A stretch of 64,000 bases of DNA from Vermamoeba vermiformis (taxonomy: Eukaryota), in the NCBI GenBank assembly GCA_045837725.1, contig JBEWZL010000221.1, positions 124,001 to 188,000 of the forward strand. The letters run 5' to 3'. Position numbers and translations under genes: made by a program. Each line of letters opens with the position of its first letter. Within the stretch, counting starts at the first letter, position 1. Of this stretch, positions 26,869 to 64,000 are shown piece after piece. Below the pieces are notes generated by a model. That model did no database searches and was not told the origin of the DNA. It saw nothing but the letters and a program-made list of their open reading frames with translations.

Positions 26869-29199
26869 TCAGTTAAGAATAAGGAATGACACGAGAACGA
26901 CGACCAAGATGGACAATAAGTGGTATCCAAATCTAGTTGTTGCCGTGCTTACTCCAGGAGGTGAGGGAGATCTGCTTGGTGCTGATGAGGTACGTGGTGT
27001 AGTAGCGGTGTAGGGAGGAGAAGAGACTGGTGCAGGCACTGACACGATTTCTATATTACTTTGTTATGATTTATTTATTGCTAAGTATGAAGCAAACTTA
27101 CTCGCTGGAGTGACGGACCAAACTGGATGTGGATTAAAATTTTGTTTCAATTCCGGCCAGTTCGTAGCATTAACCATTCGGAAATATGCATCAGCAGTGC
27201 CAGGTACTCCTAATTGCACGGCAAACGAGATGGCAGGTTGTATATTGCCCCACATACTTTTCGGCCAAGATCCGATATCAAACTCGGCACTAAGGACTCC
27301 TTCTTGCGTACTTAGCCATGTCGGTGGCTTAGCGAATGTAGCAGCATAAATAGCGGACCAATCAGCCAGCCAGGGTCCAGCGCCGGTCAGATAGTCAGGA
27401 AAATTGACGGTAGAGACTGTAATGGTGTACGGAGCTCCATTGATGTACCAATAGCTATTAGACGGTCCTAATCTGCCTATAGCAGCCTTGCATTTCCATT
27501 GGAAGAATTCCATTGCTTTCGTGTTGTCCGCATCCGACACGGGCAGATCGAGCGAGATCGCATGACCCCATGCAGCGGTTACAAAGTCTTGTTGCCATAT
27601 AGCTACAACACTAGTAGCGTCACCATTGCCATTGTCATATCCTTCGCCAGGCTGAATCAGTCCAAAGTCGTTGTTGGCTTGTTGGATGTACTTTTCATGA
27701 TGGAACCGAATGTTGCTTTCCCAGCTCGCCTTGAAGTTGTTGCGATAGTCATCTGAATCGGGAGTGACAGATAGTGCATGGGCAAGGGCTCTAATCATCC
27801 AAGCTGAAGAACGCGTCTGAACGGCACCGAGAACTGGATGCAGCAAACCGGTACTGAAATTTCGCACAATTGCACCATCTGCAAGGCCCAAAAAGTTCGT
27901 AGTTGCTGCAAATTGCACTTGTTCCATGAATAACCATCGACCAGTCACTAAATAAGCCATGTAGCCTACTGACGGAGAATGTGCTGTGTCCCATCTCGGC
28001 GCAAGAGTTCCGTTGCAGCGCGGAGTGAAATCGTACTTGCTAGAACCACCATTATTATAGTACCTGCACGTGTCATCAATGACCAAATTAGGATAATCGC
28101 TAAATCGTAGAGGCTTCAAGGTGTGTTCATCGCGCCAGTGCAACGGATATCGACCCGCACTATAGCCATTAAACACGACGCCCTTGTACGCTATAGTCGC
28201 ATTCACAGAGGTCAAGTACACCACGTCATGTTCGGGAAGCAAACCAATAGGCCGTTGATAGCCAGGTGAAGGCATCTGATCGTTGTCAAAATCGAAGTTG
28301 CCTTGTTGTAAGGGCGCATAAGACCGAACTATTCGACCGAGTGCGTATTGACCTGCATCAGCGTTGGCAAAATACGAAGGAACGAGTAGTGAGGCTTGCA
28401 TGTAGATCGTGTCGTGGTGAACAGTAACTGCTGGATCTGTCGCGTCAAACCAATAAGAAAGAGCGGTCCCTAATAACAGAGGAGTGCGTGTATGAGTTGG
28501 CAAGTCAATTAAGTTGTTGAAAAGAGTGTTGCCGCCCAAATCAAACCTAAAATTAGCAGTTTTGTTGGTCGGATTTGGAACGCGGATGTAGCCATTTTCA
28601 ATCCAAGGAAGAACTTCGACCGCGCCTCCTTTATAAAGTCGTACATCTAGCCAGGCAACGAGATGAGGATCATTTCCAACTGGTTTGCGGTAGATCCAGT
28701 TCGACATCTGCCAGCCAGAGGTCCATTCCAAGTGAGGAGAGTCCCAATCAGCACTTTGCCATGAAACGCTCCCGTAGCTCTCGCAATCGATCGTAGTTGT
28801 AATACCGGTGGCCTTCAAGTCGCTCAGCGTGAGCGGAGAAATATTTGAGACGGTGGATGGACCCAGTGTAACGACCAAAGGAGTGTCTGCTGTAAGATCT
28901 GCGTGGCCAGAAATTACAGCGTACTTAAGGGAGCCATCAGACCAGTAGTTCTTTGGTACTACTTGCATTTCAGCGAGGTTGGATGAAGCGACGCCTTGCC
29001 CGGATGTGATGTGGCCTTTGACGAATGCGAAGCCCAAAGTGAAAGGTGCGCTGCCAGTGATAGGACTAAGTAGCGTAAAAGACATTGAGCCCGTAGGAGC
29101 GGGCACAGAGACACTGGAGTACGTCGTGTTGAGGCATGAGACGGATGTGGTCAGCGAGCAAAAGAGGGCAGCGAACAAAATTAGTCCGAGCGTGCGCAT
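26869..29199 (-). CDS. Secreted ~760-aa protein: bacterial-like catalytic-type domain plus Ser/Thr/Pro stalk and GPI-type tail
   Basis: Signal peptide MRTLGLILFAALFCSLTTSVSC, then a 2.1-kb uninterrupted exon. A single 51-nt intron (27051-27101) leads in frame to KIVSVPAPVSSPPYTATTPRTSSAPSRSPSPPGVSTATTRFGYHLLSILVVVLVSFLILN*. Family assignment (PcRGLX/YetA-like N-terminus) is from recalled motif resemblance only. Confidence 0.8.
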
Positions 29200-29488
29200 C
29201 TTGTTGAGTAATCGACAAATAAAACAATTCAATCAATCGGTTGGTTTGCTTTAAAAGCTGATATAAAAATGGGGACGTGTTAGTCCTGATGTCGTCCCTT
29301 ACTTAATCGGGGAAAATACCGTATGTTTCAGTTTTAAAGAGCACCAAGCTACGATTTTAATTGACAGGAGGCCTTATTCGAGTTAATTTTCACGTTTGAA
29401 AATGGGATTCGTAAGTTGATTATTCTCCGTCATACTTCAGTTCTATCGTGGTTTAAGTAATTGCAACACTTTGTTTTATGAACCTTGT

Positions 29489-30871
29489 TTAAATTGTTCC
29501 TATTACACGTCTAATTGATTGGTCTTTGAAGATTGATCGTGCAATCGGACCAAAGTCAAGTGTCACTCCTGGATATTTGACATGTGACACGATCAACGTC
29601 CAAATATCACGTGGTAGTACTGGCATTGACTCGTTTGAATGAGCGCAATGACTTGATCGTGCAATATTGTACAACAGCACTATCATCGATCGAACTCGTT
29701 CGTTCTGAAGTTTTCTGTTACGAAGTGTTATCTCTTTGATCTGCCTTTTATCAGTGTTCCGATATAATTCACAGTCTACTATTGATTCGTTCTCTCGGAG
29801 TATTGACAGGTCATTGAGCGGAGACTTCAAAATGAGTTCAAACTTTCGCAAAGACTGTGCCATTTTTAATCCATTTTTAAAGTCGATATTATCCACTATC
29901 CTATCAGTATTCATATTTAACAATAAATCTTCCAATACCGGAGAATTGGCGAGTATTTTTCCGATCGAAGAGTACAAATCTGGCATGCAGCGGTAGTTGT
30001 CGTAAAGTTCCATGTGTAAAATCCTCACGCTACTATCCGCCAAAGCATTAAATGTATCATATCTGGGGTCCTTGTTACAGTAAAATCCAAATTTCAGCTT
30101 CGTTAATGCTTTTGATTTTTGGATCAGCCGAACTAGATGTGGCATTGCCGGCACGGTGACCAGTATATGCGCCAATTCCAGTGATATTAATTTGTCATTA
30201 TGCTCGACAAAATATTCGCAGAATTCTTTGAATCCTTCCGCTTCAAATGGAATTTCGTCGCCAAAAAGAGATATCGCAGCGAATGAGAACTGATTGAAAT
30301 TCGTTCCACTTGCAAGTGTTGCTGCGATTTCGGTGAATAAATCAGTCCAGCTATCAATGCAAGGAACATCCAATTTGAAATACTTCGTTGGGCAGCGAAG
30401 ACCGTTCAGTTTTGTATTGAGTGGTGCACGTGAACTGTCATCTTCGGTGACTTCCAAAGTCACAAGATCGATATTGCAGTGATTATTATTGTTATTGTAC
30501 TCCTTAATTGCATCAAACAGGAGTTGGATGTGCTCGCGGGTTGTATTCGCTTCTAAATCAAAATTGATCTCGTTGATTTGATAATTCATGTTCGGTTGCT
30601 TAATATCATCAATAAAGTATTTAACGTCTTCTGCAAGCTGGGTTAGAGCGATGATGACTCTTTTAACATTCGGGTAATTCAAAATTCTGGTCTCTTTGTT
30701 TGATATTGTTATCTGAATGCATAATAATTAATATACATAATAATACATCTATAGGTATTTTTTTGGGTCGATAATAAAATCATACCATTTAATAAAAAGA
30801 GAAAATTAAAAGATAATTCGAAATCTTTGACCAAGCTCAATTAAAATAATTACCTCATTGATCTGCGACAT
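29489..30871 (-). CDS. RNI-like LRR protein with C-terminal F-box-like motif, copy A
   Basis: Micro-exon MSQINE spliced to a long exon containing ORF 29489-30682. LxxLxL repeats (LISLEL, LTKLKF, LEDLLL, LRKFEL). C-terminal VLPRDIWTLIVSHV. Confidence 0.75.
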
Positions 30872-31409
30872 GACTATATTGATATAAACTAATTTTGAGG
30901 CAATCTTGTGGTGCTGAGCCAATGACCAAAAAAAAAAAATGAAATCCGGATGTTGATCCAAAATACACCGCTAAAAACCAGTGCGGACCTTGTCCACAAA
31001 TGTCAGTCACGTTAATAAACCTAGATCAGCCCCAAAAAAGATTGCTCTCCAAACTCACTCAATGCCAAATAACACCGATTCTTGTGCGACGTTTCATCTT
31101 GATCCACCAAAATGACATTTTAGTAAGTCTTCGCTGAAGACTGTAATGTTTAAATCTCGCTCATTTTATTGATATATTACACGTCTAATCGATTGGTCTT
31201 TGAAGATTGATCGTGCAATTGGACCAAAGTCAAGTGTCACTCCTGGATATTTGACATGTGACACGATCAGCGTCCAAATGTCACGTGGTAGTACTGGCAT
31301 TGATTCGTTTGATGAATTATTGCAATGATTGGATCGTGCAATATTGTACAACAGCACTATCATCGATCGAACTCGTTCGTTCTGCAGTTTTCTATTACGA
31401 AGTGTTATT
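29501..31409. repeat. ~230-bp near-identical direct repeat (29501-29731 vs 31175-31409) forming the 3' ends of the two LRR-like genes
   Basis: Long identical runs such as GGACCAAAGTCAAGTGTCACTCCTGGATATTTGACATGTGACACGATCA occur in both copies. Confidence 0.9.
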
Positions 31410-32579
31410 TCGTTAATTTTGTCGGTCGGATTTGTCTTATGATTATGGGCATTAATTGGGCATTTGAATTGTATTAATGATTCATTTTCTTCTAACAAAT
31501 ATGAGACTTGCTCTTCGCTCAAGGGAAATTCGGGAAGTGAAAGCGATTTTAACGAGTGTGCTGTTTTTAACGCTTCTTTAAATAGCTTCTTGTGATTAGG
31601 ATTTTCGATTAATTCTCTATCAAATGACGTTACGATCAATTCTTCTAATTTTTGAGAATTTTTTATGAGACCAATGCACATCTCGAGGCTTTCGACTGTT
31701 AAGTTCTTTATGTTGCTATTCCGTATAGCGTCATACATGCTACTATCTCTCTTGTATAGGAAAGATGGAAATTCATATTTGAGATCTGTTAATGCTCGCG
31801 AATTTTGAATGAGTTGACTGATCTGTTGATAATTCTTGAGGCAAATATCGAAGTTGAAGAACTCTAATGATAACAATTGCTCGCTATTTTCACTAAAGTA
31901 TTCGTAGAATTGGGTAAATCCCTTGTCGAGCGTTAACGGGCAATCGTACATGAAATTTGCATCACGGAAGGAGATCTGATTGAAATTTGTTCCGCTCCGA
32001 AGAACCGACACTAGGTCTTGAAACATACTGTCAATATCATCATCGATCGAGGCACTAAATTTGAAATATTCTGTTGGTCTTTGAAGATTTTTGAGTTTTT
32101 CAAGAGATCCGATATTTTCTTCTTCATCCTCAGCAATATTAAGGCGTTCTATCATAATAGTCAAATTACGAATCTTGTGGCTACCGGTATTATTGTACTG
32201 TTCAATCGTTGAAAAGAGTAATTGAAAGTGCTCGTGTTTTGTGCGCGAATCCGCACAAAATATCACTTCGTCTATGACTAATGGCGGCTTAAGTACTTTT
32301 GGAACTTCAGCTATATCATTTGCATTATCTTTTAACTTTATATGGAACTGTTTGACCTCTTTGTTCGGAGATGTAATGGCGCGAACATTGAATATCTGCG
32401 GAAATAAATCAGAAAATTACAAATGACGAGGATAAAATTATTTTATCAGATTTTCACGCTAAAAACCAATTTTTCAACGTTATTGTATTTATGCAACGCA
32501 AGATGCGTTTTGGGCGAGAGCAAAACGTGTATTATGCTCATTATTTAGTCACCAACAGAAAATTACTCACGTTATTCAT
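31166..32579 (-). CDS. RNI-like LRR protein with C-terminal F-box-like motif, copy B
   Basis: Micro-exon MNN spliced to a long exon containing ORF 31166-32266. Colinear similarity to copy A (SGTNFNQ, LLSLEF, LKSLSL) and a near-identical C-terminus. Confidence 0.75.
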
Positions 32580-44315: not shown

Positions 44316-45896
44316 ATGGATTGGAGGTTTGAAGGATGCGAATTACCGGCTGAAATCTGGCATCTAATTGCGTCCTATCTTCCAGTAGTAGCTATAGTGA
44401 GGTAATTACGTACATATATAAATGCACGCTAGCAGTGTTTATTTAATTATAATTCACCGCTGCGAGATCCGCTCCGTTTGTTATTACAAAAATTACTATA
44501 TAGATATTTTGAGCGGTTTCTTTCGTGAAAAATAAATGAAAAATTATTTTCAGGCGTAGGTTTAGCATAATGATATATTAGAGCTTCGGCATCTCCAGAT
44601 CTAACAAGTAATTACTAGAGCTTCAGAGGTCAACAAAGAAAGCACTAAATGTCTCTACTACATATACAACCTGGATTTAACGAAAATGGAGATTAATGCA
44701 TCGTGGCACAAGTTCAGCAGCATCGCGCGACGCCTGCCAAATGTTCGACGGCTTTCTGTCAATATTAGGACGGAAAGCCACGTCAATGCGATGCATAATA
44801 TAACAATACTAGAGAATTTACAAGAATTATTGCTCTATGGAGGCGTCTATTTGAATATTGGACAAAGACCGCTGATCTGCGACATTACGCAAAAGCTTCC
44901 TCACTTACAACGCTTACTTCTCGAAATATATCCTCGAAATCTCGATCAAATCGTAGATGCTACACCTAATCTTACGAGTTTGGCCATCAGCACAGCAAGA
45001 CGAGATAAATTGATGCATCTGAACTCGTTAGCGAAATTAACCAAACTCAAAGAACTGAAGATAGCCGCAATTGGCAATAAAGCACTAGAGCCCTTCGACA
45101 AGTTTTCACAGCTAACAACATTAACCAAGCTAAACTTGACTGGAGCCGAGTTCAACGAAGTTTTGAATTTTGGAGATCTAACTCTACTTGCCGACTTGGG
45201 CGTATTGAAGCTTAATCAGATAAAATACGACTCGATGAATGGCGTCATGCACAAACTGACGAATTTGCGGCGCTTAGACTTCCTGCAGCACATCCACGGC
45301 TCGTCCAGCGAAACACTGTTGGACGAGTGTGAGGGGCTTACACGACTGACTCATCTTTATATTGATGATGTATACGGAAAAGAGGCCAAGATTTTGGCTC
45401 TTTCGCAACTTAAAAGCTTTGCAGTAAGTATTTAGCGCAAATTTTTACTCGAGCACATGTGGATCTTCAACACATTCGGTCAACTTTAGATCATTTACTG
45501 ATCCTTATTTGGGCATAGGTGCTTGGCATGTTCAATGGCATCGAGACAATGTCACATTTGCGAAAGCTGAAATTGATCAGCATGATTCAAGCGGATGCGT
45601 TCCATGCTGTGTGTAGCTCGATGACAGCTTTGGAGCGCCTCTACCTATGGTCGTGGCTGAATTGGCATATTCATGACAAAGACTTCGAGGATATCACGAA
45701 GCTAAATAACTTGACCTCATTGTATATCTATGGAATGGATCTAGTCACCAACGAGGGATTTGGATGCGTAACCAAACTCACTCGGCTGCGGAGGTTGGAT
45801 TTTGCCGGCGAATTAGTGACCACGGACGTGCTTTCTGAATTGAAGCAACTAACGAACCTTAACTTCCTTTGTATTAATTCTTCAATGCCTAAATGA
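44316..45896 (+). CDS. F-box/LRR protein, tandem copy 1
   Basis: Exon 1 MDWRFEGCELPAEIWHLIASYL (F-box), followed by LRR exons (ORFs 44686-45435 and 45519-45896). Confidence 0.85.
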
Positions 45897-45980
45897 ACAA
45901 TCAAAGAAAGATTTTTTGATTTACTTTTAGTAACAGCTACCACAACCGGAGTTTTAATCCTTAAACCCCTTATTAAGATA

Positions 45981-47380
45981 ATGAATTGGAGAATAGAAGG
46001 TCAGAGTTTACCGTCTGACATTTGGGGTATCATAATGACTTTTTTAGAAACAACAGAAATTATACGGTGAGCGAAAGAATACTGCGAACAAAATAAATAT
46101 TTATTACTATTTTATATAATTATAGAGCCTCTCAAGTCGACAAAATCAGCCGGGATTGCAGATCATTTGTTCGTTGGATAAAATACAGCCGGGAAAACTG
46201 GAGCCTGTTTGCTGAAAGAATGGCTCCGTTTCGAGGCATTACAAAACTAGATATTCTACTGGTTGATGTTCTTGCCGAATTCAAACACATAACAATGTTG
46301 CAAAAGTTGCGCCATCTTCATCTGTTTGTTGCAGATCAGACGAACGTGGTTCCAATACTGGCGAAACTGACGTCCCTTCAAGCATTGGAAGTAAATATTG
46401 ATGAAAATATAGACGCTATTGCAGAGAACTGCACGCAGATTACGCACCTGTCACTCAGATCCTTCTTCAGCTCATACAGATTCCGGTTCGCGAGTGCGCT
46501 GCCCAAATTTACACAATTGCAACACTTACAACTAGCAATTGCAACCCGCGTGGATTTAGCAGACATCCCGGATCTGGCAACATGGAGTCGTCTGACCTCA
46601 TTAGTGCTTTCAACTTTCAGGACTTTCCATTCAGCGTCTTACCATCACTTTGAATCAAATCTAACACGCGGGCAATTAAGCGCGTTAACCAATCTACGCG
46701 TGCTAGAAATATCAAATGTAGCCATCAAAAAAGACGAGGCAGTGTATTTACAGTCATTTGCAAATTTGACCAATTTGGAGCGATTGGAGCTAAACAGGCC
46801 GCCCTATCCCTCGTATGAATGTGTTAGCAACATGCCAAACCTGACGTGTTTGATAACGGCAGATTATAAATCCGCAGAAAACAATTACTACAAGCTGGAG
46901 AGTCTGACCAAATTGCAAGCACTACAGCTCCTAGTATGTCTTTTTTACGTTACATCTATTCTAATACTCGAAAAGGTCTACCAAGGTTTACAAAGCAAGT
47001 TGACGTTACTGCCGCAGACCATAACGAAGTTGCATTTGATTGAAAGCGGTTCCCTAATGAACAAAAGCTTTGTTTTTGAGATGGTGCAACACTTGCCGCG
47101 ATTAGAAGACTTGTCAATGGAGCGCTGCAAAACCCTGTTGCCGCATCCAACGGTAGAAGACATTAGTCCTCTGACAAGCTTGGAACGACTGACTTCATTG
47201 AATCTGCATAAATACCACTCAATTACTAGTGAAGAGATGACGACAATAATCAAGCACTTTACCAACCTGAAATATTTGTATCTGAAAGGCCACCAGTTAA
47301 GCGCTTCAAAAATGTCGGAAGTCATCTCAATGCCGTCATTAAAGAGAATACACTTAAATGGTACCTTAGTAAAGGAATGA
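45981..47380 (+). CDS. F-box/LRR protein, tandem copy 2
   Basis: Exon 1 MNWRIEGQSLPSDIWGIIMTFL (F-box, intron in the same position as copy 1), then LRRs in ORF 46220-47380. Confidence 0.85.
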
Positions 47381-47416
47381 CGAGTTTAAAAATAAATTAT
47401 ACGATTTGGTCGGCGT

Positions 47417-47428
47417 TGACACGTGTCA
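47417..47428. promoter_or_regulatory. Perfect palindrome TGACACGTGTCA (G-box/E-box core) ~130 bp upstream of the LRR kinase ATG
   Basis: The same 12-mer recurs at 23682-23693 and within a 16-bp palindrome at 54211-54226. Regulatory function is inferred only. Confidence 0.35.
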
Positions 47429-47560
47429 TTGGCCTCGAGTTTTTTTGCTTGCATTTTACGAAGCACAAAATACGAACAACAATGCTCAGGCATTGAAATA
47501 TTATTTATTTATTTGTAATTTCTTCAATCCAAGGCAGAGAGGCTTTAAAGAGAAGAAAAA

Positions 47561-50500
47561 ATGTGGCTGATCAGATCTCTGCTTTTGATAGTCGTTTTAT
47601 ACGGCGTAATTACTCCTTCCACAACGTTGGAGAGCCAAGAATATTCTTTTTTTCAGGATTTTTTCCTCTTAAATCCGCCAGCGTGGACACGCTATTTAAC
47701 ACCAGGATGGGACTCAACCCAAATCGTATCAGCTTGCGATTGGGCAGGTGTAATATGCAACAGCAATCAAACTAACGTTATACGATTGTAAGTTTAAAGA
47801 TCAATATTGAAGCAAAAAGTTACAAGACAGATCATGACATCTGATTTCAATAGAATTTAAGATTTAACGAAATTATAATTTTATATATCGTTTATTTATT
47901 TACTGCAATCGAATGCTCCTTATATTTTAATTAATTAATGAGATACTCTTTGAATTCGAATTTTCTCGCGAAAGAGACGGCTAGCACAAACGTCGTCCAT
48001 TTTACCTTTTAGGGCTTTTATTTGACTATCAATCATGTACTGAATTAAGGAATCACGACATAACGAATCAATTTTATTACTAGGGTTTTGGACGGAATCC
48101 GATCGCTAACGACCTCGAATATAACATTGCCGCCGTCAATTAACAAATTGACGCAGCTACAAGAGCTGTAAGTATTGCATAATGAAAAGATTAGAACATG
48201 AACCTCATTGTGCACGTGCAAATCCGCTGTCGTTTGGCGTATTTTAGTTGTGATTCACGCGGCATTATTAGAACAAATATACTCTAGCACTTATTGATTA
48301 ATATGACTCAGATCTCTTGGCCAAATTCCGCTGGGACGTTTGCCGGATGCAGTTACACAACTTTCGAACTTGCAAATTCTGTAAGATCAACGTTTTTTAG
48401 AACCATATTATTTTTAATAATACTAATTCTCATTAAGGAACTTGGATCGGACGAATATTCCCTCTTTGCCAGACAATATTGGCGCGTTAAAAAATTTAAC
48501 TCGAATGTAAGTGCTCCTAAATTACTATTTATTGAGTAATAATTGCTAATTTAATATTGCAGTGATTTACCAGCTATATCAAGTTTACCACTATCATTTA
48601 GAGATTTAACGTCACTTACGCAACTGTACGTCAATTTTTTAGATCTGAAAAGCAGCTTAATTTACATTATTAATTATAGAAATGCTAGAACGTTTAATTT
48701 TCGAGCGATGCCTACTATTTTATGCGAGCTAAAATCGCTTCAAATAATTCGTATTGTCGGTGGAATACTTAGCGAAGCTTTCCCGCCCTGCTTTGGACAA
48801 TTAACGGACTTGATTGAACTGTAAGTAAAACGCTATTAAATAAGGCATATAAGCTAATCCGTATCATTTTGCAGCAACATTCAATCGTCAAACTTGAACC
48901 ACTTTCCTCTTTTTTCAACCTGGCAAAAACTAGAGATTTTGTAAGTCTCAAGAGAAAAGCTTATGACCTAATAATTAATCGGTCATATTATTTAGGACGA
49001 TTGGATACGCTAATTTGCAAGGCACAATTCCGGAAATAATTGGATCGCTGACCAACCTTCGTGAACTGTACGACAAGTCAACATTACTTTCCACGACCAT
49101 CAACTAATATTAATCTATTTGCAGTACGCTTCGCAGCAACATGCTTACGGGAACATTGCCCAGATCGATCGGCAATCTGCAAAATTTGGTCTCTTTGTTC
49201 GTGGATGTCAACAGGTTAACAGGGACGATTCCAAGTACCATTGGTAACTTGACCAATCTAAGTACGCTGTAAGTATACTACTTGAAGCCTATACGACGAG
49301 CATATATTTATTGACCTAATTATAGCATGCTATTGTCCAATCAGTTCACCGGAACATTGCCTCGTGAAATTGGCAATTTGATTCATTTGCAGCACTTGTA
49401 AGTTTATTTTATTTTCATGAAATATCTATTATTAACATTGTAAAAGGGATATAAGCACTAATAGGCTTACGGGATCACTCCCTGAAGAGCTCGGACTTTT
49501 GACCAACCTGACAGCTTTGTAAGCGGATCTGACACGTCTTCACTTCAACCTATACTAATATATGAGTATTATAGCGCATTCACCGATAACTTGTTCAGCG
49601 GATCTATTCCTGCATCAATTGTCAATACCTCCTTGCGTTCAATGTAAGATTGGATCTGCAGATCCGTTTGTCACATTGCCGTTGATTCTAATGTATTATT
49701 CATAGTAACGGAGGCAATAACCAGCTGAGCGGGCAAATTCCAGACGATATTGGAAAATTACCTTTAAGAACAGTGTACGCATCCGCAGATCAAATCCGTT
49801 ATTTTTTTTCGTAACTTATCATCATTTTGCTTAGATTGCTGTCTAATAATCAGCTCTCTGGAACACTGCCGCCAAGTTTTGAGAATTGTACCATGATGAG
49901 AGATTTCAACGTCGCTTTTAACTTAATTTCTGGCCCTGTGTTCGACTTCACCAAGTTTACCCAATCAGTCTCCTTGTACGTACTCGAAAATAATTCTTTT
50001 CTTATTAATTAATTAATTTTAGGTCCTTTCAATTCAATTTGCTGAACGGAACATTGCCTAGCGAAGGTTACGAACAATTAATTAGACTGGAAACAATTTC
50101 ATTTCAGAATAATGACATTCGCGGAACAATTCCGTCGTCTTTAGGTGCGATTAATGCTCGAACAATGTAAGCACAAATAGCACAAATTATAACTAAAGTC
50201 ACTGAACTGACACCTTTTTTAGTAACTTGTCGAGTAACTGGCTGATCGGAACTATTCCGCCAATTCTTCTCGTAAACAACACGCGCGTTACGTTTATGTA
50301 AGTCTATTTGTTAAAATTATCGTATTTTCGCTAATTTTTTTGTTACAGCGATCTTTCTGACAACTTAATCTCGGGCACTATTCCTCCCATCGATCTTGAT
50401 AACATCCAAACACTGTAAGAACGGCATTAATATTCTTTTGGATTTGCATCCCTAATATTAACTGTTAATATAGATTCTTTGAGGACAACATACTTAGTGG

Positions 50501-53500
50501 TCCTACACCTCCAACGAATCATTTGAATAATTTGCAGTTTTTGGATTTCAGTCACAATCATCTGTCGGGAACTTTGCCGGCTTTTTCATCGAGATTGATA
50601 TATTTGTAAGTACTATAACTATATTTATATATACTTCATACATCAAGCTCATTAGTTTAATAGGGCACTTAACTTTAACATGTTAGAAGGCACTATTCCA
50701 CCTGAAATTTTCAACATCAACGGCCTCGGATTGCTGTAAGTATTGCCATTTATGGTAATAGCCGGCACTGACTAACACGTGTGCCTTAATAGGGACTTGT
50801 CGTATAACTTCTTGAACGGCACCATTCCACGACTTCCAACCAGTCAAACCAGTTTGCGACACATGTAACACCTAACTTGATTTTATTTTGTTTTGTACGC
50901 GGTGCTAATTTCTATTGGCCTAGTGACTTGTCAAACAACAGACTGACCGGAGAACTTCCGCAAAGTTTAGTTACGATGGTTTCTATTCAGAACATGTACG
51001 TCAATTTCAACTATCATTTGATATTATTATGCAGTTACTCGATTGATCATTTGATACTCAAATGAGTTGTTTAAAAATACGGAGCGAGATCTAATGATTT
51101 TTTTTAGCATTTTGTCCAATAATTTGCTGTCTGGAAACTTCCCGTTCACTGGCACTCTGTTCAACATTAACATTCTGTAAGTATCGTATTGTTTAATATG
51201 GAGCCTTATACTAACATTGAATGCAGTCGAATTGATCGAAATTTCTTGACGGGAAATTTCCCACGACACTTTTTGGCAGCGGTTAACTTGGAGATTCTGT
51301 AAGTACACGTTAAATGGCCTATTTAATACATTTATAATATCTTTGCAGAGATTTATCGGACAACGAGCTGACTGGAGTTATTCCGTCGACCGCTGATCGG
51401 CCACGTAGATTGAAGGAATTATCGCTCGCCAGAAACAAATTAACGGGCGCAATTCCGCCGACTTTGTCCAATATTGCAGGTTTGGAACGATTGTAAGCTT
51501 ACCATTGGTTATAATAATTCAGGCTTGTTAGAGGTTCTAACAATGTTTTAGGGATTTGTCGGGCAATCTGTTCATCGGAGGTATTCCGCCACAATTAGGA
51601 ACTTTGCGACGATTACGAGCAATTGATTTCTCGAAAAATGATTTGATCGGAACCATTCCTGACACAATCGAAGACTTGACACAATTGGAGGTTTTGTAAG
51701 TGTTACGCTAACGGCCTAGTCACGTGCTTAACTGTGTTTCATGAACAGGGATCTTTCAGACAATCACATCGAAGGCACGATTCCCGAATTCATCGGCAAC
51801 TTGTTCCAACTTCAAGTGCTCAATCTTGGAGGCAACAACTTGGTTGGCTCTATCCCGAACTCGATTTTCAATTTGCGAGCCCTGGTCGAGCTGTAAGTAT
51901 CGCGAATGACACGTCAAAAAAATGTCACATAACTAACTGACACCTTGTCTAGTGACTTAGGCGATAATCATCTTCAAGGCACGGTTCCCAGAACTTTATT
52001 TACTTTACAGCGTGCTAAGGGACTGTAAGTACTAATCTTTTTTTTTGAAAGTCTGACCCGTGTCTCACGTACTTTTCTCAGCGATCTCTCGGACAACAAT
52101 TTTGTAGGAACCTTGCCTTCAACATTGTCTCAGATGCGCACTCTCGAGTACTTGTAAGCCCTTAATAACCACCCCATTAACTTTTTTTCTAACGTGTTTG
52201 CAGTAACATTGCCAACAATGCCTTCACTGGTCAAGTGCCGCCATTGCACAGCTTGGCTAACCTTAAAGAGATGTACGTTACATTAATCAAGTGACTAGCC
52301 AGTATATTAATGGTCCTTATAATAAGCTATGTGCAATCGAACAAGTTCAGTGGCTGCATCCGGTTGCCGCCGCAGTTCTCGGATCTGGATTCGAACAGCA
52401 CGTGTGTTCTCGACAACAACAACTTTTGTTGCGCTGATTCAGCGTACAATTGTCGATTTACTGATGGTACGTACGAATGAATACAGCTTTTTCTGGCACT
52501 TTCTAATGGTTCTGCAATAGGCCGATGCGACATCAATTCAGTTCTCAGAATTTCCTCAGGAAATCGAGTGAACATCAACGACGCTGATAGTTTCACAAGT
52601 AAGTCTCGAGTACAATGAGTATATACGGCAGTTTCTAATATTATCGTTTTAGAGCTCGTTGTGGAACGAGGTGGAACCTTGGTCATAACGCCATCAGCCA
52701 GCATGTCGCTAGATTGTTTGGAGCTGCAAGGCACAATTGACATTGAAGTGAATGAAGAGTACGAGGACAAGCAGTTTGAAATGGACTTGTTCGTCTATAC
52801 CTGTGGATCCACGCAGAACGCGACTTTCCGCACCAGCAAAGGTTGTCGCATTTCACAGAACCGAACGATCAGTCAAATTTCAGGCAATTTCAGATACGAA
52901 CTGCAGCTGGATTGTTCGCTGAATTATATCTCGCAAGGTACACTCAAGTTTTCAATTTTTTCATGTTTTCGACATCTGGATCCCGCGGGACTTAACTTAT
53001 GTCTATTTTTAGGCACTATCATTGCTATTATTGTAGCGTCATGTATCGCAGGAGCACTCGCGATTATTGTTGGTGCGGTGACGTACAGATACTTCAGAGG
53101 CAAGCGCCGTGTGAAGCAACTACTCAACAGAGTCGAGTTGTTGACTTTGACAACAAAAACGTCTGATTATTCCACTCTACCGCAATGGCACGCTCCCGAA
53201 CATTACGCTTTGAAACCAATTGAAGATATGCCTATTTACGTTGGTGGAACGAGGTTTGATTTTGGCGCCAAAGGCAACTTGCTCAGAATCGAGACCCAGT
53301 ACAAAGATGTAATGAAAGTGCAAATCAAAACAAAACAAGCACGAAGAGGCGGTCGCGGCCCTGGTCTAATCGAACGATTGCTCGACAAAAATATTACGGT
53401 GAAACTGCATCCCGTACAATCGGAGAAGTACCAGCTCGCGATAGATCCGCCCGAAATTCAAGTCAACGAAAAAGACACGGTAGACGTCACTTTATTACTG

Positions 53501-54568
53501 CAAATGAAGATGACTACGAAGACCAACGTGTCTTTATGGGTTGAAATCCCTGAGCTGAAGGAGTTCTCGTTGCTCGAGTTTACCGCCGCAAGTGAACCGT
53601 CACCTTGGGTCGACATTGACGAAGTTGATGGCATTACTGAATCACTCGGAGAAGGTGGTTTTGGCACAGTCTACAAGGCTCGATATAGAGGTCAAACTGT
53701 CGCCTATAAGAAGTTGAAGGTAAATCTCGCGGCATGCTTCAAAGTGATCACTCCTAACGCTCGATTTTTTTTTCACAGTTCCAAGAATTGAACGTGCAAC
53801 AGTTCGAAGAGTTCAATCGTGAAGTCGCTATGATGATGAACTTGCATCATAAGAGCATTGTTCAGTTCATTGGTGCGTCAAAAGTGCCAGGCAAACTTGC
53901 CATCTTGACCGAGTTCATTCCTGGCGGTAACTTGCAAACGCTGTTGAACACGAAAACTTTGGATATTACGCTCAAGCTTAAGATTGCATTGGACATTGCC
54001 GAGGCATTACAGTTCTTGCACACGAATAATATTCTTCATCGCGACATCAAAGCGGAAAATATCTTGGTCGTGACCACGAACAGAGACGCCGCGATCAACG
54101 TCAAGTTAACGGACTTTGGCACAGCAAGATCAGTGTCTGAACAAGTCACTATGAAGTTCACTAAGGGCATCGGCACTCCGACTTACATGGCTCCCGGTAC
54201 GAACACTTTTTTTGACACGTGTCAAACAGTCACTTTTGGTTGCTGAAACTAACTTCGTATGTATAGAAATCTTGGATAATAAGACATATGAAAAAGCAGC
54301 CGACGTCTACAGTTTTGGCATTCTATTATGGGTGCTAATAACGCAAGAGCAGCCCTACTCGTTCGTCCAACAAGCATGGGAAGTCGCGAGTTACGTAATC
54401 TCCGGAAAGAGATTGCCTATTCCGTCAGACACACCAGTATCGGTTGCAGAGCTGATTAGAAAGTGTTGGGCTCAATTACCAGCCGACAGACCGACGTTTG
54501 ATGATGTAGTGAAAGAGCTTTCGGTCATAGTAGAGATTTCAATGACGAAACTAATTAGCTTTTTCTAA
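47561..54568 (+). CDS. LRR receptor-like transmembrane kinase (TKL group), ~34 exons
   Basis: Signal peptide, LRRNT cap (W...ACDWAGVIC) and ~35 plant-type LRRs (L.L..N.L.G.IP..IG.L..L). Then a Cys-rich cap, a TM helix (TIIAIIVASCIAGALAIIVGAVTY), an intracellular beta-rich spacer, and a kinase (LGEGGFGTVY, HRDIKAEN, DFG, GTPTYMAP/E, DVYSFG). Confidence 0.93.
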
Positions 54569-54737
54569 TAGTTGTACAATATAACGAAGTGATTGAAGTC
54601 ATGGAGTTGTTTATTAAATAACAAATACCACATGATTTTATTCTTTCCGTTGTAAAAATATTTATTTATTTATTATTTTATTTGTACAACGATATTATCA
54701 TTTCGTGATAACCATAACCATATCTGATAGGGTAGTT

Positions 54738-57396
54738 CTATATGTCCTCATCATCATCAAGGGAATCGTTTTCTTCACCTTCTTTAATGGGTATGGGTGC
54801 CAAACTCGTCAGTTGTTTCATCGATGGCATAGACCAATCGTTCTTGAAGAAATCAAGCATCAACAAGAATCCTGGGCCCGTTTGGCTGTCTTCGCTGGCA
54901 GGAATAGCGACGAAGCTGATTGGTGGAACAAGTAATTTTGGTGTAGGAATGTCTTCGAGCTCTACCCTAGCGGTCTCAAAGTCATTGAACGCGGCTAAAA
55001 AGGAAGTTAAACGTACGTTAGGTTTTTCAGAGATTAAGTCAAAAATATTATTAATAATTATAATTATTATTTTTAATACTTACAAGCAAAGTTGCAGAAA
55101 AGTGGCTCGTTGCCAAAGCCAATCATAATTTTGTCGTTTTCAATTAATATCTTCTCCTTATCGATTTGATATTCTTGATTGAACAAAACTAACGTAGAGG
55201 ATTTCACTTCGAACAGGCCTTCTTCCAAAAGTTCCTGCCAATTAGTATCGTCTTTTTCATAGCCTGCCATATATCGTTTCTTAATAGCTTTGAAATCGAT
55301 CGGGCCCAATATTGAATTCGCAGAAATGTTTTGTAATTTCCTGACTTTTCTCCATAAATTTGATAAAATGAAGGCTGAGGTCTGAGTGGCCGGATTTTTC
55401 GGATCCGAAATAACCTTTGAAATGCATTGCAATCCAAACGCTGTGAAAATGTTCGAGTTCGATGGTGTACCTTTGTCACGTGATCGACCATTAAAATAAT
55501 CCAAAACAGCAATGATCGCTATTTCCTTCAGATAGTCGTGTGGTGTACTTCCATTCACTGAACCAGGTTCATGAACGTAAGGGAACCAATAGTCGCATCC
55601 ATTCGTTGCAAACACAAAGTTGCCTCGCCATCGTTTTTGCAGGACTAAAGGCGGCGCGGAAGTGTCATCTGTCAAGCCCCAGTGCAAATTGTTGACACGT
55701 TCGTAGAGCTCGTGAGCGTAGCGTGAGAGTGCAGGTTGAAAAGTGCTTTGAAGTGTCATGTAGACTGCTGAGTTGAACAGTTTGCCGACTTCAGGCGTGT
55801 GGTTCAATTTCCAGTATTTAAAAATGAGCTCGGTGCGTAAAAACACTTTGTTTGTCTTCACGAACGGATTGCCTTCGTGCAAATACTGCTGATCGAAAAT
55901 GACGCAATCGAATTGTTTCACTTTAGTCAGCTCAAACGCGCTGTTTTTCTCGGAATTTTCGTCGCTATTATCCCACACCTTCATAACAGGACTGCCAGAT
56001 CCGCTACTGAGATAAATAATCATCGTGAATTTTGACACTTGCCCTTTAGCAGGATCATAGTAAGGAGTGTCCATATGGGCTTCAAACTTTGCATCGCCCG
56101 GGGCAAATCTGTTGCAGCGAAACACATGATTCACCGCCGTAAACCTCTTGCAATCCAGGTCGGCTGAATCTTTTTCCATAGCTTCAAATGCCTCGGTCAA
56201 CGCGCTGCTTAACTTCTCAGAAGAGAAAATGAAGCGCTCGCCACCTCTCGTGCTCGAATTTGACGGTTTTTGATAAAGTCCCAACTGATCCAATTGTAGG
56301 AGCAGATCCAGACTCGACCCACCAATAGTCGTTTTGTAAATATGCATCGTCTCGGATAAATTTTCAAGAGGAGACATTGTAAATGCCATGCTTTGTTTGT
56401 CGCCAAGATGTAACGCTCGATCCAGCGGCAAAATGCACTCAAAGTTGTGATAGGACAAGTCGCGACCATCGACCCATACTGCATATAGTGGGCTGTTTGC
56501 GTCGTTATTTTTGTTGTCATCACTTTGTTTTTCGCTCACTTCATCGTCTTCGTCTTTGGTCGCTTTCTTGTGTCGGTTTGAGGGTAACTTTGGGATGCTT
56601 TTTGGAGCCAGCTGTGCGACAGATTGAAGCAGCGATTGATCGATGTCAGAGAGCTCTTCGAGGTCTTTGATATATTTGAGAATTCGTCTGTTCTTCGAGG
56701 GGCAGAAAGAGAACGGCAGTGATTGAAACTCCGCGGAGGGCACAAATTCGTCATCCAAAATGTCCAGTAATTTGTTCAAAACTTGCTTCTCGCTTTGATC
56801 TAACCAGCCACGCGAGTCAGCCAACCATAAATCGCGCACTCCAACGCAAAAATAGAGTGCTTCTTGTTCGTTCAGAGAAGTCAGTATTGAGGGATCCCTA
56901 CAAACTTGTTGCATGAATGCCAGAGACCTTTTCGAGGCTAATTGGTGAGTACTTTTGTCGATTATAAGCGGCCATAGCTTTCCAGTGATAATAGCTCCTG
57001 AAACAAGATTTTGCATCAAAAGTTGATCTTCGATCTCTGCAGGCTCGAGAGCGTTGTTGAGCTTTTCATCGCATAATATCAACACTTTATCTTTTTTGTT
57101 CACTTTGAGCGTTTGAACCTTGCAATACCTTGCGATTTGCGAACTGTAATAAATAAAATTATTCAATTATTAGATCGAGGTTAGATCTGATCAAAAATTC
57201 AAATCTGCTTACGAATCATTAACACGTTCATGTTTGTTTTTTATAGATTCCTCTTTTTCCGTTTTCCTGGAGCTGATAATAATTTTAGATCTTGAATCAT
57301 TAATACCAGCGATTGCTTCTAAGTTACGTACCTAATTTTTGCTTTCTTATTCGGAGCAAGATCTTCTTTATTGCTCAATTTTCTTTTGCGTTGCAT
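54738..57396 (-). CDS. Large protein containing a 2OG-Fe(II) oxygenase-like domain (4 exons)
   Basis: FRCNRF..GDAKFEAHMDTPY (HxD), FTMIIYLS, VIFDQQYLHEG (distal His) and KVFLRTELIF (2OG-binding R) within the 2.1-kb exon. N-terminal exons MQRKRKLS...; final exon ends DDDEDI*. Confidence 0.75.
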
Positions 57397-58958: not shown

Positions 58959-61900
58959 TTACTGCTGGGCTGATTCAGACACCGAACTCGTGGCGTCAGT
59001 GTCCGAAGAAGAGCCACCTGAGTCAGATGAAGACGAGCTCATTGAAGCCTCAATTGCCAACTTGCCAAATGCAGTCTTAAGCACATCACGTGGCTTAGGG
59101 CGTTCACTGAAAACGATTGCATGAGATAAAATTTCGAAAGGTGAAAATTATATAAGGTACTTACAGCGCACCAAAGCCGTTGCTCAACTTAGGGTTAGAT
59201 TTCCAAGAATAGACACACTTTCCTTTTTTGGAAAAGACGAGGACAGCAGGCTGGGCCATACCGTTAACATATCCGTGTCGCCTAATAAGCGGCAGTCAGC
59301 AAGGGTCGCTTAATAAATGAACGCAAAGGTACGTACTCTGAGACATTCAACATGAACTGATCAGCAATTGTATTTTCAGGCTCGCCAATCACAGGATAAG
59401 TCAAGCCCCACTTGTTAGCGGTCTTTGTGATGCTGCGTTGGTTTTCAGATGAAATTCCGACTAGCATGCCTCCCTTAGCAAGGATCTTCGTGAAGTACTT
59501 GTTCCAGTTTTGCATGTAGCGCTTCATGAAAAATTTTTAGATCCAAAAATTTACGCTACAAAATAAACGTGCCACTTACGTTGCAGAATGGGCACCACGA
59601 ACCACGGAAGACCACTACAACGAGGAATCGGTGCTTTGAAATTTCATCGTTCAACCAATCAACGAGTCGCTCGTACTTCTCGGGAGATTTCGTCAAAAAT
59701 CCAACGTTGGGAATGAGACTTGAATTAGCGCTTGACAAAGATCTGCTCGAGACGGAAGTCAATGAGCTACTTGACACTCTGCTGTCTAGTGACGGTCGGT
59801 TCTCAACCGAAGATTCGATTTCCGAGTCTTCTTCTTCTGGGAAAGTACCAGGAGGTGCGAACGCTAGACATATAAATTAGCATTATTGCATATAAATTTT
59901 TTGTTGTACCTTTGAGAATGGCTTGTTGGATGTAATCAGTAACGCCCTCTTCGTCGCCGACATCCCCAGCACAACGAGTGCACATTTGTTGGGCTTCAGG
60001 CATCTCTTCGGCCTTCTGTTTGAATTTTCTCAAGACAGGAAGGTACTGCGATATGTTCTCGTTCAAACGATCGATGATCTTAGGCGACATGTAGAGCACA
60101 AATCCGCCGACCATGAAGTAGTCTTTGTCGAGCATCACGTGATCAGGGTTCAATGACTTTGTTATTCTCTTTTGCGAGATGCGTTTTGTGACCAACGTGC
60201 TCTTTTTCTAAACTATCGCATTGTTAGTTACTTCAATACTTGATCACATGTTAGTAACTTACCGAAATAGTGTCGAGGAGCGTATTAATCTTAGTGGCAT
60301 TTTCTTTGCAGAAATCTTGCAAAGCTGGCTCTGCGACAGGTTTGCCTAAGGCGACGCTCTCAAGCAACAGCGATAAGCGAGACAAGTTGTAACGAGCAGC
60401 AGGTGAGATGGGCTCTGTTTATATCACGTTGTTAGGATTGGTCGTGAAATTTCACGTGCACAAAGAGGACGTACCTTTTGTTAAACCAGCCGCGTCAGGA
60501 GCGGCTATAGCGCGGCAATAGAACTTCTCGAACATAATTGCTGCAATACCCTTAGTCTTAATCACGTCTTCATGAGCAAAAGAGAAGGTCGATTTCATCT
60601 TGGCATCGATGCGTTGCAACAAGGCGACCATTTGAGTCGGGATCGAGTTCTTATTGTCAATAATTCCGTTGATCATCTTCGTGGCAAACTTGATTAGTTG
60701 CTTGGCATTCTTGGCGCTTTCATTTTCTTCTTTAGTTCGCTTCTTATTGCTGACCATGCTCGACACTTGGAGCTCCTTGTCGTACTTCAGAACATCAGCG
60801 ATGACGTCACCGAACATTTTTTTCATGTGAGACGAGCAAGTCAAGCATAAGTATCGCACGATGATTTGCGTAGTGATTCTAGTGTCGTAGAATAAGAGCT
60901 CGAAAGATGGGAAATCATCTTTCATGATGAAGCCCCAGTTGTCTTTGAAGTTTTGCTTCACTGAATCTAATGACAAAGCCGATATTAGTTATGCTTACTC
61001 TAGTTAGAATGATTAGTACCTGATGACGTGAACTCAAGGTCAACAGCCCAGTTGAGCAGATCCGCCAATCGACCCTCGTCATTGAACACACGTAACAAAC
61101 TGTCAATAAGCGCGACATCGACACGTGCTCCGTAGCTGCTTTGAAACAGAACGTTCATGAAATTCTTGTCAGAAGTGAGGGTATTGAGCATTTCCTGGCC
61201 GACCACGTTTTCGGTGATTTGTTGATACTTAACACTCTGTAATAAACGTCAGATCCGGTCGCCAAAAATAAACGAAAATTAACTAAGTCTTACCTTTTTG
61301 ACTCGCTTGGAGAGCTTCTTGTAGAGTCTATTATTAGGCTTCCAATGGCAACATCAATTTGCCCGCCTTCTTGTTCTTTGTCAGTGTTGAAGTATGAAAC
61401 AAAGAACTCGCCCTCAGGGGTCATTAAAAATCGATGTTTTTTGCCAGGAAAAGTCTTTGATTTTAACGGCACGAAGCGCTCGTCCAAAGAAATGTCCCAT
61501 ACGTTGATTTCTATAAATAGACATATTGAGTTACCTTATTGCTAATCCATATCGGATGACTTACTGTTTTTAACCAAAACTAGTAAAAATCCATTCCTGA
61601 AGCAAATCCAGTTCACACGGGCTTCCATTAACTCCTTGAAATTCTTCTTTGAGGCGCCCATTGAAGAGGCATTATGGAAAGATTGTCCCTTCATATGGTT
61701 AGGCATGTAGTAGAAGTCTACTAAGCCCTTTACGTTGCCAGTAACAAGCGTGTTTTCGTAGATCTTCATAGCGGAGATTGCAAATTCGGTTGATACTTCA
61801 TAGTCGCGAGCTGGTTGGGAAAAACGGTTAGCCTCAACTGCGCCCAAAATATTGCGAGAGAAATTTTAGGTAAATTTCATATTTAACAATTTCCAAAAAC

Positions 61901-62947: not shown

Positions 62948-64000
62948 TCAATGCCAGTCAAAATGATGCTTGATCCGATCGAACCTCTGGCCGTTCAGAT
63001 CGTGTTGATGAATAGTAACTTCCATTAAGCCGTTGTCACCAAACATCCAATCCTGATCCGTCTCCACTTCCATAAGCAGCCGATCTTGACATTGGTGCGG
63101 GTAATCACGTGAGCAAACGATATGATCGCTATGGTAGCTATTATACACTCGCTCTTGTTCGTTGTTGGCAGACGGAGCGCAACTCCGAAGGTTCATCTCG
63201 TCGCAGTACTTCGCCAGACAGGCCTCGTATGTCCTTTGAAATGGCGTGCTCAATCCTAACAGCGCATGCTTGCCATACTTCTTGCGTAGAAAATTCGTGA
63301 TCGTAGTGAGAGCGAGGTCTTCGTCGTCCGTCAAATCAAACAGCGGCAAGTTGTGCGAGTACTTCCCGATCGTGAGGATCTGCGTGAACTCCGCGCGACA
63401 AGACTTGTAGATGTGTCGCGCCTTCTCGGAATTTGGGCCCACAGGTCTCGTTCTGATTAAATTTTCGTTTGTGTTAGACGCGTAGAAGTGAAGTTTAGCG
63501 TTGCTGTGAAGGTTCTTGTGGTCACTGTTAACGAGCACGTAAAATATTCCGCGCTTTGGCAATAATCGCCTAATATGGAAATCATCGGGAATATCTTCAA
63601 GATTCAATTGAAATAGCAGCTGCGGGATTTCTAAGCCCTTTTCCGTTTTGAAGTTCGGCACCCAACTCTCGGGCAGATCGGGACATCCTCCGAACTTGCT
63701 TCGTCCTACAGGTATGTTGTCTTCATTAGGCTCGGGGACTGTATTAATTCGCACCTGCCAGTACATTTGATAGGCTGCTTTATATAGAGCTCGGTCGTTC
63801 TTCAGAAACGGCTCGTAGACTTGCATCCGTAACTCGTTCTTGTGATCTTCAAGCAGCTTCTTTAAGTACTCTCCTTTATCTCTGACCTCTAATAATATGT
63901 TAGTACTGTTTTAACAAATGTTTGCAATTGATTAGCGAGAACGGATCTCGCGATCAAGCGCAGTTGGAGATATCATCGTACGTACCTCTTATTTTCGATA
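62948..64000 (-). CDS. DUF1963/YwqG-like domain protein, 5' end beyond the window
   Basis: SKFGGCPDLP, LLFQLNLEDIP, LPKRGIFY and WMFGDNG...I...DL...FD are DUF1963 motifs. The acceptor near 63890 and a donor near 63985 show upstream exon(s) running off the window. Confidence 0.75.

Follow-up and report, generated by a model that had tools for sequence, protein, structure and literature searches.

Symmetric phase-2 exons encoding the leucine-rich repeats of a Vermamoeba vermiformis receptor kinase: probably a record of old exon duplication in a single conserved gene

The stretch of DNA analysed here (the window) comprises 64,000 nucleotides of Vermamoeba vermiformis, contig JBEWZL010000221.1 of assembly GCA_045837725.1, positions 124,001 to 188,000 of the forward strand. 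At 47561-54568 on its + strand it carries a real, transcribed gene for a cell-surface receptor kinase, most of whose leucine-rich repeats (LRRs) are encoded by an array of 28 small exons. Our findings are best explained by a single conserved receptor that is probably spliced constitutively, the exon array being the record of old LRR-exon duplication and of intron turnover at a canonical site. The array almost certainly arose by duplication of LRR exons, and alignment to one relative shows a gene that is conserved and, as judged from its codons, under purifying selection. The original prediction, made from the sequence alone, had recognized the array and proposed it as a potential receptor-diversification system; the gene gives no evidence for such a new recognition-diversity mechanism. 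That prediction missed the match to plant genes down to the position and phase of the introns, and the following points are likewise new with respect to it: (i) the exon grammar of plant LRR receptor-like kinases (LRR-RLKs) is found in a gene with a kinase of non-plant type, (ii) an intron is present or absent at the canonical site between relatives and (iii) an ASH/MSP-like juxtamembrane domain is common to relatives with Kelch and Ig ectodomains.

The gene has 35 exons and 34 introns, extends from an ATG at 47561 to a stop codon finishing at 54568, and encodes a product of 1569 amino acids (aa). Its exon model was curated by hand from GT..AG sites, the open frame and the LRR register and was checked by script, intron 32 (75 nt) being entered from spliced contigs. 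In order, the protein consists of a signal peptide, an N-cap, 37 LRRs, a Cys-rich cap, a stalk, a transmembrane helix, an ASH/MSP-like beta-sandwich and a TKL-type kinase. This gene model, together with Pfam matches to LRRs and to kinases, bears out the earlier description of an LRR receptor kinase gene. Its features, with the evidence for each, are as follows.

47561-47787, + strand: exon 1, signal peptide and Cys-containing N-terminal cap (C-x-W-x-G-V-x-C-like); gene model, ends in phase 2.
48084-52272, + strand: array of 28 symmetric phase-2 exons (exons 2-29) with 36 LRRs; lengths, phases, splice sites and spliced joints.
48084-48167, 48312-48380, 48438-48506, 48563-48625, 48680-48820, 48875-48940, 48996-49067, + strand: exons 2-8.
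49125-49268, 49326-49397, 49447-49518, 49575-49643, 49706-49774, 49835-49975, 50023-50166, + strand: exons 9-15.
50223-50297, 50349-50414, 50474-50605, 50664-50735, 50793-50864, 50924-50995, 51108-51176, + strand: exons 16-22.
51227-51298, 51349-51492, 51552-51695, 51749-51892, 51953-52024, 52082-52153, 52204-52272, + strand: exons 23-29.
52327-52466, + strand: exon 30, last LRR and Cys-rich C-terminal cap; gene model, joint 52272>52327, position kept in the relative L001 (see below).
52521-52937, + strand: extracellular Cys-containing stalk, exons 31 (52521-52598) and 32a (52653-52937); no known family and no Pfam match.
52938-53012, + strand: intron 32, 75 nt, phase 1, in frame, no stop codon, GTACAC..TAG.
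53013-53719, + strand: exon 32b, transmembrane helix, then beta-sandwich, then kinase glycine loop and VAYK lysine; AlphaFold2, Foldseek and relatives.
About 53015-53086, + strand: predicted transmembrane helix with a long helical extension; AlphaFold2 model.
About 53190-53615, + strand: predicted cytoplasmic ASH/PapD/MSP-like beta-sandwich between the transmembrane helix and the kinase; AlphaFold2 and Foldseek.
53779-54196 and 54267-54568, + strand: exons 33 and 34, kinase core with HRDIKAEN, DFG, APE and the stop codon; Pfam, best matches and joint 54196>54267.

Every one of the 28 array exons has a length divisible by three, with sizes of 63 (one exon), 66 (two), 69 (six), 72 (nine), 75 (one), 84 (one), 132 (one), 141 (two) and 144 nt (five). 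Single LRRs are encoded by 20 of them (63-84 nt) and pairs of LRRs by the other eight (132-144 nt), which gives 36 repeats; exon 30 supplies the 37th and, ending in phase 1, closes the phase-2 run. The four exons that had been measured at 72 nt in the original prediction (49326-49397, 49447-49518, 51953-52024 and 52082-52153) are of exactly that length, and five more share it.

Introns 1-29, which flank the array exons, are without exception in phase 2. At each of them xT closes the upstream exon, and the split codon (CT/N, AT/N, TT/N or GT/N, the stroke marking the intron), which is the second L of LxxLxLxxN, specifies L, I, F, V or M. If the three phases were used equally, 29 equal phases would be expected by chance at (1/3)^29, or about 1e-14. 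Since the remaining five introns of the gene are in phases 1, 1, 1, 0 and 1, the phase-2 bias is specific to the LRR part. All 34 introns begin and end with GT..AG and have a GC content below that of the exons; their median length is 57 nt (47-62 nt in 30 of the 34), and most contain a CTRAY motif 11-25 nt upstream of the acceptor. Retention would lead to a stop codon or a frameshift for 32 of the 34, introns 5 and 32 being the exceptions; retained intron 32 would insert 25 residues just outside the membrane. Because all 28 array exons are symmetric phase-2 exons, simple arithmetic dictates that losing, repeating or exchanging any one of them would leave the reading frame intact, and the split xT/N codon stays hydrophobic with almost any partner exon. 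In this regard, the earlier account of about 28 exons of one or two LRRs, interrupted in phase 2 within the same hydrophobic codon and exchangeable without loss of frame, agrees with our model in all 28 exons and 29 introns.

Splicing is shown at 14-17 of the introns. Four public runs were compared with 47400-54700, X6 and X7 as contigs and X21 and X23 as raw RNA-seq reads; X6 and X7 are labelled as RNA only as a guess, and the precision of their GT..AG joints is what indicates spliced RNA. Exact GT..AG joints are present in the X6 and X7 contigs for 14 of the 34 introns (14-19, 25-29, 31, 32 and 34), including 11 of the 29 phase-2 LRR introns (14-19 and 25-29). Introns 21, 30 and 33 have further support from contig pieces or near-exact joints, that of intron 21 containing one ambiguous letter. 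Exon 1 is supported by an X6 contig over 47555-47745, and both X6 and X7 contain the stalk joints 52598>52653 and 52937>53013, intron 32 being spliced out in each. The joints listed from the two runs all connect adjacent exons, and no exon-skipping joint is found among the 15 joints listed from these contigs, seven further joints standing outside that list. In the species-labelled runs X21 and X23, 4 and 11 reads, respectively, are 95-99% alike and confined to the kinase part, with no spliced read coverage of LRR exons 2-29. Lying over 53500-53990, these reads differ from the window by five fixed differences and by a joint 53715>53779 with four extra A at intron 33, and a diverged copy of the kinase part, itself expressed, is their probable source.

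None of the measures applied to the repeats of the array points to recent copying. Nucleotide identity between LRR units averages 52% (maximum 65%) and is nearly the same for adjacent and non-adjacent units (53% vs 52%), while the introns have a mean identity of 52% vs 46% for shuffled introns (maximum 0.69 vs 0.63). Given units that are on average 52% identical and introns near their shuffled controls, the exons were not duplicated recently. No periodicity by repeat offset points to duplication of higher-order blocks of LRRs, no relic LRR exon occurs in the introns (the long introns 1, 2 and 21 included) or on the antisense strand, and tblastn finds no paralog in the window, which contains no second kinase gene or plant-type LRR gene. 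Runs of frame-neutral LRR exons, as known from shuffling systems, are present, with a length that is only partly uniform (72 nt in 9 of 28), and signs of recent shuffling were not found, the comparison with a relative covering 7 of the 37 LRRs in one relative.

That relative, L001, is a metagenome contig locus of 2133 nt, collinear with window positions 51549-53283 and the one locus confirmed among 311 pattern matches of a metagenome scan. Its exons show about 80% alignable identity to those of the window, its introns do not align, and AG/GT is kept at all 8 intron positions covered. The last seven LRRs correspond one to one, with no insertion or deletion. Nei-Gojobori estimates of dN/dS (the ratio of nonsynonymous to synonymous divergence, omega) between the two are 0.106 for LRR exons 25-29 (167 codons), 0.059 for the cap and stalk and 0.058 for the transmembrane and juxtamembrane part, values consistent with purifying selection throughout.

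The two loci differ in one intron. Exon 25 of the window gene (51552-51695), a double-LRR exon of 144 nt, is represented in L001 by 72+72 nt, separated by an intron (L001 126-181) of 56 nt with GT..AG ends and in phase 2, which falls at the canonical LRR site between window positions 51623 and 51624. On alignment this is a clean case of intron presence and absence, and thereby of intron turnover, inside a repeat array. Because L001 splits exon 25 in this manner, the double exons are best read as fused single ones. We propose that the founder unit would have been one LRR with one phase-2 intron in a structural Leu codon, that unequal crossing-over would have multiplied this unit into copies that then diverged, and that the frame-neutral design would have permitted the past growth of the array. 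The eight double exons would most simply be pairs of single exons fused by precise intron loss; at the exon-25 site, L001 would have retained the intron, or lacked the loss, loss being preferred over gain as the presumed direction. As to a present-day use of the frame-neutral array for making variants, nothing in the evidence, consisting of contigs and one partial relative, shows one.

An array that is used now as a combinatorial generator, through regulated or mutually exclusive exon use or through frequent exchange of exons between paralogs, is what the original prediction would imply, and we regard it as a very unlikely alternative. It draws on the frame neutrality of all 28 exons, on the split codon that is hydrophobic with any partner, and on transcription, in the species-labelled RNA runs, of one or more diverged copies of the kinase part; yet the joints listed from X6 and X7 all link neighbouring exons, the units and introns have diverged as described above, and neither relic or antisense LRR exons nor, within the window, a paralog came to light. 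A difference in LRR number, 37 here vs about 19 in the homolog P0001 (see below), and somewhat more variable positions on the concave face would also suit a generator, but the seven LRRs compared stand 1:1 in L001 with an omega of 0.106. In addition, precedents for LRR exon shuffling do exist in the ROCO genes of the brown alga Ectocarpus and in Tetrahymena, according to passages of the respective papers (PMC3341825; PMC6564038); the former reports shuffling for the ROCO genes and not for the LRR-kinases of Ectocarpus. Were the array a working diversity generator, in which skipping or choice of exons, or exchange among paralogs and strains, creates a receptor repertoire for prey, pathogens or kin, a single-celled eukaryote would thereby possess a recognition system based on splicing, with varied solenoid lengths and binding faces; we hold this to be highly improbable.

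Several observations weigh against a constitutively spliced, conserved single receptor and have to be set beside it. The splicing evidence consists of assembled contigs, in which rare isoforms get lost, and the reads of X21 and X23 do not sample the isoforms of this very gene in the species. One X7 contig contains an odd backward joint, 50831>50576, running from within exon 20 to within exon 18 and including three added letters; misassembly of similar LRR exons might account for it, or else a rearranged copy. Comparison with the relative covers only the last 7 of the 37 LRRs, omega is rough because dS is saturated (about 1.2-1.8), and two sequences give no direction for the intron change in exon 25. 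At the concave, ligand-facing x positions (five per LRR), 13 of 35 are changed with respect to L001, vs 28 of 132 elsewhere (odds ratio 2.2); these positions thus change about twice as often (Fisher p=0.075), so that the ligand face appears only mildly more variable. Finally, P0001 has about 19 LRRs vs 37 in the window gene, so that, on a longer time scale, the family has not kept its number of LRRs constant.

The uniformity of the introns might also be taken as the mark of recent, independent insertions by a spreading element, as in an introner-like burst. Lengths of 47-62 nt in 30 of the 34 introns, and the one intron that is found in L001 and absent from the window, are in line with this idea, although the non-LRR introns of the gene are equal in length to the others. 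We reject such an origin and see hardly any chance of its being correct: the introns are barely more alike than shuffled ones (0.52 vs 0.46; maximum 0.69 vs 0.63), the extra intron of L001 resembles no other (maximum identity 0.61 and 0.52), and independent insertions would not have landed on one codon position in every one of 29 repeats.

The conserved single receptor that we favour has an ectodomain of pronounced plant type. In the exon register, the 19 units that measure exactly 24 aa have the consensus dLsxNxLtGTIPxtignLxnLxxL. The first seven or so LRRs are irregular, with 21-23 residues and without GxIP, yet have the same intron position; the later ones follow the 24-residue pattern LxxLxLxxNxLxGxIPxxLxxLxx, which we take to be the type known as 'plant-specific'. 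Three of the double exons match Pfam LRR_1/LRR_8. Compared with solved chains, the double exon 26 (47 aa) is closest to GSO1 (1.5e-74), followed by FLS2, RGI, PEPR1 and ERL1, and the first non-plant solved chain is a Leptospira LRR protein (1.8e-16). Exon 1 gave no Pfam match at E<=0.01; its cap motif is presumably akin to the plant LRRNT_2 cap. With its signal peptide, N-cap, 24-residue LRRs, single predicted transmembrane helix and kinase, the protein has the architecture of a plant LRR receptor kinase.

The gene structure is of the plant type as well. One LRR per exon is the organization of plant receptor kinases of the ERECTA/SERK type. In the 'group 5' LRR-kinases of rice, passages of PMC3050792 describe LRR introns that interrupt, in phase 2, the codon for the first Leu of xxLxLxx, exons mostly of 72 nt with one repeat and others of 162, 144, 81, 78, 75, 69 and 66 nt, and an explanation of the array by exon duplication and shuffling. 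All 29 introns and 28 exons of our array conform to this rice type. The gene thus resembles plant LRR-RLKs in domain order up to the kinase, in intron position and phase and in its exons of 72 and 144 nt; unlike them, it has a kinase nearest CTR1, TNNI3K and Roco4-type TKL kinases and not IRAK/Pelle, an ASH/MSP-like domain between the transmembrane helix and the kinase, and 37 LRRs. Its neighbours and a median intron of 57 nt are likewise unlike those of a land plant. The GC content of the window and its other genes (DOCK, RasGAP, a Ras-family GTPase and Kelch) suit an amoeboid or some other non-plant protist; for a Vermamoeba genome, a GC content of 41.7% and 3.5 introns per gene have been published. 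That plant LRR-RLKs (PMC3050792) and Ectocarpus ROCO genes (PMC3341825) offer precedents had been stated in the original prediction, and both are found in passages of these papers.

These likenesses raise the question of origin, which is compatible with our account of present function: the ectodomain cassette with its phase-2 introns might share descent with streptophyte LRR-RLK ectodomains, either because intron-bearing genomic DNA was transferred and subsequently joined to a native ASH-TKL module or because the one-LRR phase-2 unit predates plants. Shared descent is possible, although we are doubtful of it, and lean towards an independent origin of the intron-bearing LRR unit from that of plant LRR-RLKs. 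The coincidence of intron position, phase and exon sizes (72, 144, 69, 66 and 75 nt) with rice LRR-kinases, as PMC3050792 reports them, favours shared descent; however, only one founder intron has to coincide, at about 1 in 72 if positions are equally likely. The 24-residue repeats, with plant receptor ectodomains as the best solved matches by a wide margin, point in the same direction, but the Pfam model of the plant N-cap has no match to exon 1 or to P0001 at the thresholds used, and the irregular N-terminal LRRs share the intron position, as duplication within the gene predicts. Since the kinase module occurs with quite different ectodomains in its relatives, the LRR ectodomain was joined on secondarily, which fits shared descent.

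Other lineages bear on the same question. In the Ectocarpus ROCO genes, as described in sections of PMC3341825, one-LRR exons of 72 nt and 24 residues start with GxxP and end after NxLx; because this register (GxxP...NxLx) differs from ours, the plant-like intron position is not universal among one-LRR exons, a point for shared descent. The window gene is like these genes in having one 24-residue LRR per frame-neutral 72-nt exon, although the exon register is another. According to the same sections, the introns of the ROCO genes harbour relic as well as antisense LRR exons and recent duplicates differ in LRR number, with no such shuffling in the LRR-kinases; by contrast, our gene is free of relic and antisense exons in its introns and its LRRs stand 1:1 in L001. 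In Tetrahymena, parts of PMC6564038 report LRR exons of exactly 90 bp, more than 96% of them flanked by phase-2 introns, with a junction codon shared by two exons. They amount to tens of thousands in more than 1,000 genes per species, some fused to protein kinase domains, and show recent clonal expansions, retained nucleotide similarity and an association with retroelements. Tandem LRR exons of equal phase, and of phase 2, in a protist are common to both; unlike Tetrahymena, the window offers one gene with 72-nt-based units, copies that have diverged and nothing to suggest a recent expansion. That phase-2 LRR exon arrays also arose there, as this source has it, argues against shared descent with plants, and such a design may be favoured repeatedly.

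In oomycetes and other non-plant organisms, plant-like LRR ectodomains occur in transmembrane kinases whose kinase is not of the RLK/Pelle type, which the relevant portions of PMC3268121, PMC8254037 and PMC10463195 attribute to independent fusion. Our gene shows the same combination, and the interpretation of the oomycete cases as separate fusion events (PMC3268121 and PMC10463195) speaks against shared descent. In contrast to these proteins, its kinase belongs to other clades, and an ASH-like domain is not reported in the portions concerned. No exon-per-LRR array was found described in the main texts of PMC3268121 and PMC8254037 ('intron' and 'exon' with 0 occurrences each), and that of PMC10463195 has no occurrence of 'intron', 'exon' not having been searched there. 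Whether the plant-type LRR ectodomain with its introns was invented once and then moved or inherited, or is a recurrent duplication-tolerant design, is testable. Small one-repeat exons with a uniform intron phase are also a feature of animal LGR/glycoprotein-hormone receptors, which differ in their G-protein-coupled output and in their LRR subtype. In the papers searched, no passage was found on the intron phase of animal LGR genes.

The intracellular part of the receptor is of another kind. Exons 33-34 match Pfam Pkinase (3.9e-31) and PK_Tyr_Ser-Thr (9.4e-28), and the best solved relatives of the kinase core are a tyrosine-protein kinase chain (7t6f; 76.9 bits), CTR1 (72.3), TNNI3K (66) and Roco4 (64), with IRAK4 (61.5 bits) below all four. 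The kinase is thus not RLK/Pelle-like by best hits and would fall outside the RLK/Pelle (IRAK) family as far as a best-match test can tell. As the translation contains a G-loop, VAYK, HRDIKAEN, DFG and APE, the protein looks like an active RD-type TKL kinase, apparently a Ser/Thr kinase. The product would then be a type-I membrane receptor Ser/Thr kinase (TKL group, RD type), in which a ligand on the concave LRR face would alter receptor pairing and so activate the kinase.

Between the transmembrane helix and the kinase, where Pfam has no sequence match, an AlphaFold2 model computed from an alignment of 32 relatives (A2) has a mean predicted local distance difference test score (pLDDT) of 85 and shows a helix (2-48) followed by 8 strands. 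Foldseek relates the modelled beta-sandwich to the ASH domain of OCRL (TMt 0.58), PapD-like domains of HYDIN (TMt 0.67 and 0.60), the ASH domain of CEP192 and the MSP domain of VAP, with E-values of 1e-4 to 3e-3 for these proteins and 18 matches at E<=1e-3. The juxtamembrane domain, as modelled, accordingly displays the 7-8-stranded Ig-like sandwich of the ASH/PapD-like/MSP fold.

Relatives of the gene were sought by word-based searches, by an exhaustive HMMER search in which the exon-32 frame served as query and by the metagenome pattern scan mentioned above; a search of the ESM Atlas gave no usable match. P0001, the only homolog found by word-based searches, is also the only full-length LRR-bearing one. 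With 1143 aa and 37% identity over the stalk-to-kinase exon, it shares the cap, stalk, juxtamembrane domain and kinase of the window gene, and its LRRs, numbering about 19, are very regular. Its ectodomain best matches plant receptors (GSO1, 1.7e-190) and its kinase LRRK2, CTR1 and EGFR, with no plant RLK kinase domain or IRAK4 among the best 60; its LRR units are more alike than those of the window gene (mean aa identity 45% vs 30%). The HMMER search yielded 61 relatives (E<=1e-10 for 32), most of them being fragments or else gene calls that break off at introns. Many, of 1100-1200 residues, end at the kinase glycine loop, probably because the gene call was truncated at an intron. Fragments P0004 (80% identity), P0010, P0050 and P0051 align to the stalk alone.

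In the two relatives that were scanned, P0009 and P0016, the same transmembrane, juxtamembrane and kinase-start module is preceded by Kelch propellers and Ig domains in place of LRRs, which indicates that the kinase cassette is a family of the lineage's own with exchangeable ectodomains. A literature search brought up no account of a transmembrane kinase that combines a Kelch or LRR ectodomain with an ASH/MSP domain. The cassette of transmembrane helix, ASH/MSP-like domain and TKL kinase with swappable ectodomains appears to be an undescribed receptor-kinase family.

Upstream of the gene, at 44605-47380 (+), another gene encodes LRRs of other type (Pfam LRR_14 and LRR_4, Zer-1-like) in long exons of 276, 125 and 427 codons. 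Because this neighbour uses long exons, the small-exon design is not a general habit of the genome's LRR genes. Five long frames of the window have no Pfam match at E<=0.001, namely 27064-29232 (-; 722 codons), 55073-57166 (-; 697), 29489-30727 (-; 412), 31166-32416 (-; 416) and 10952-12472 (-; 506), and Rfam and tRNA scans of the window found nothing. Elsewhere, the window contains a Kelch-repeat exon at 5951-6505 (+), pieces of a DOCK-family guanine nucleotide exchange factor (DOCK-C2 and DHR-2) at 9057-16000 (-), an exon for a Ras-superfamily GTPase at 18835-19290 (+), a RasGAP exon at 60452-60988 (-) and an intron-free DUF1963 frame at 62948-63910 (-). Its GC content is about 0.34-0.50.

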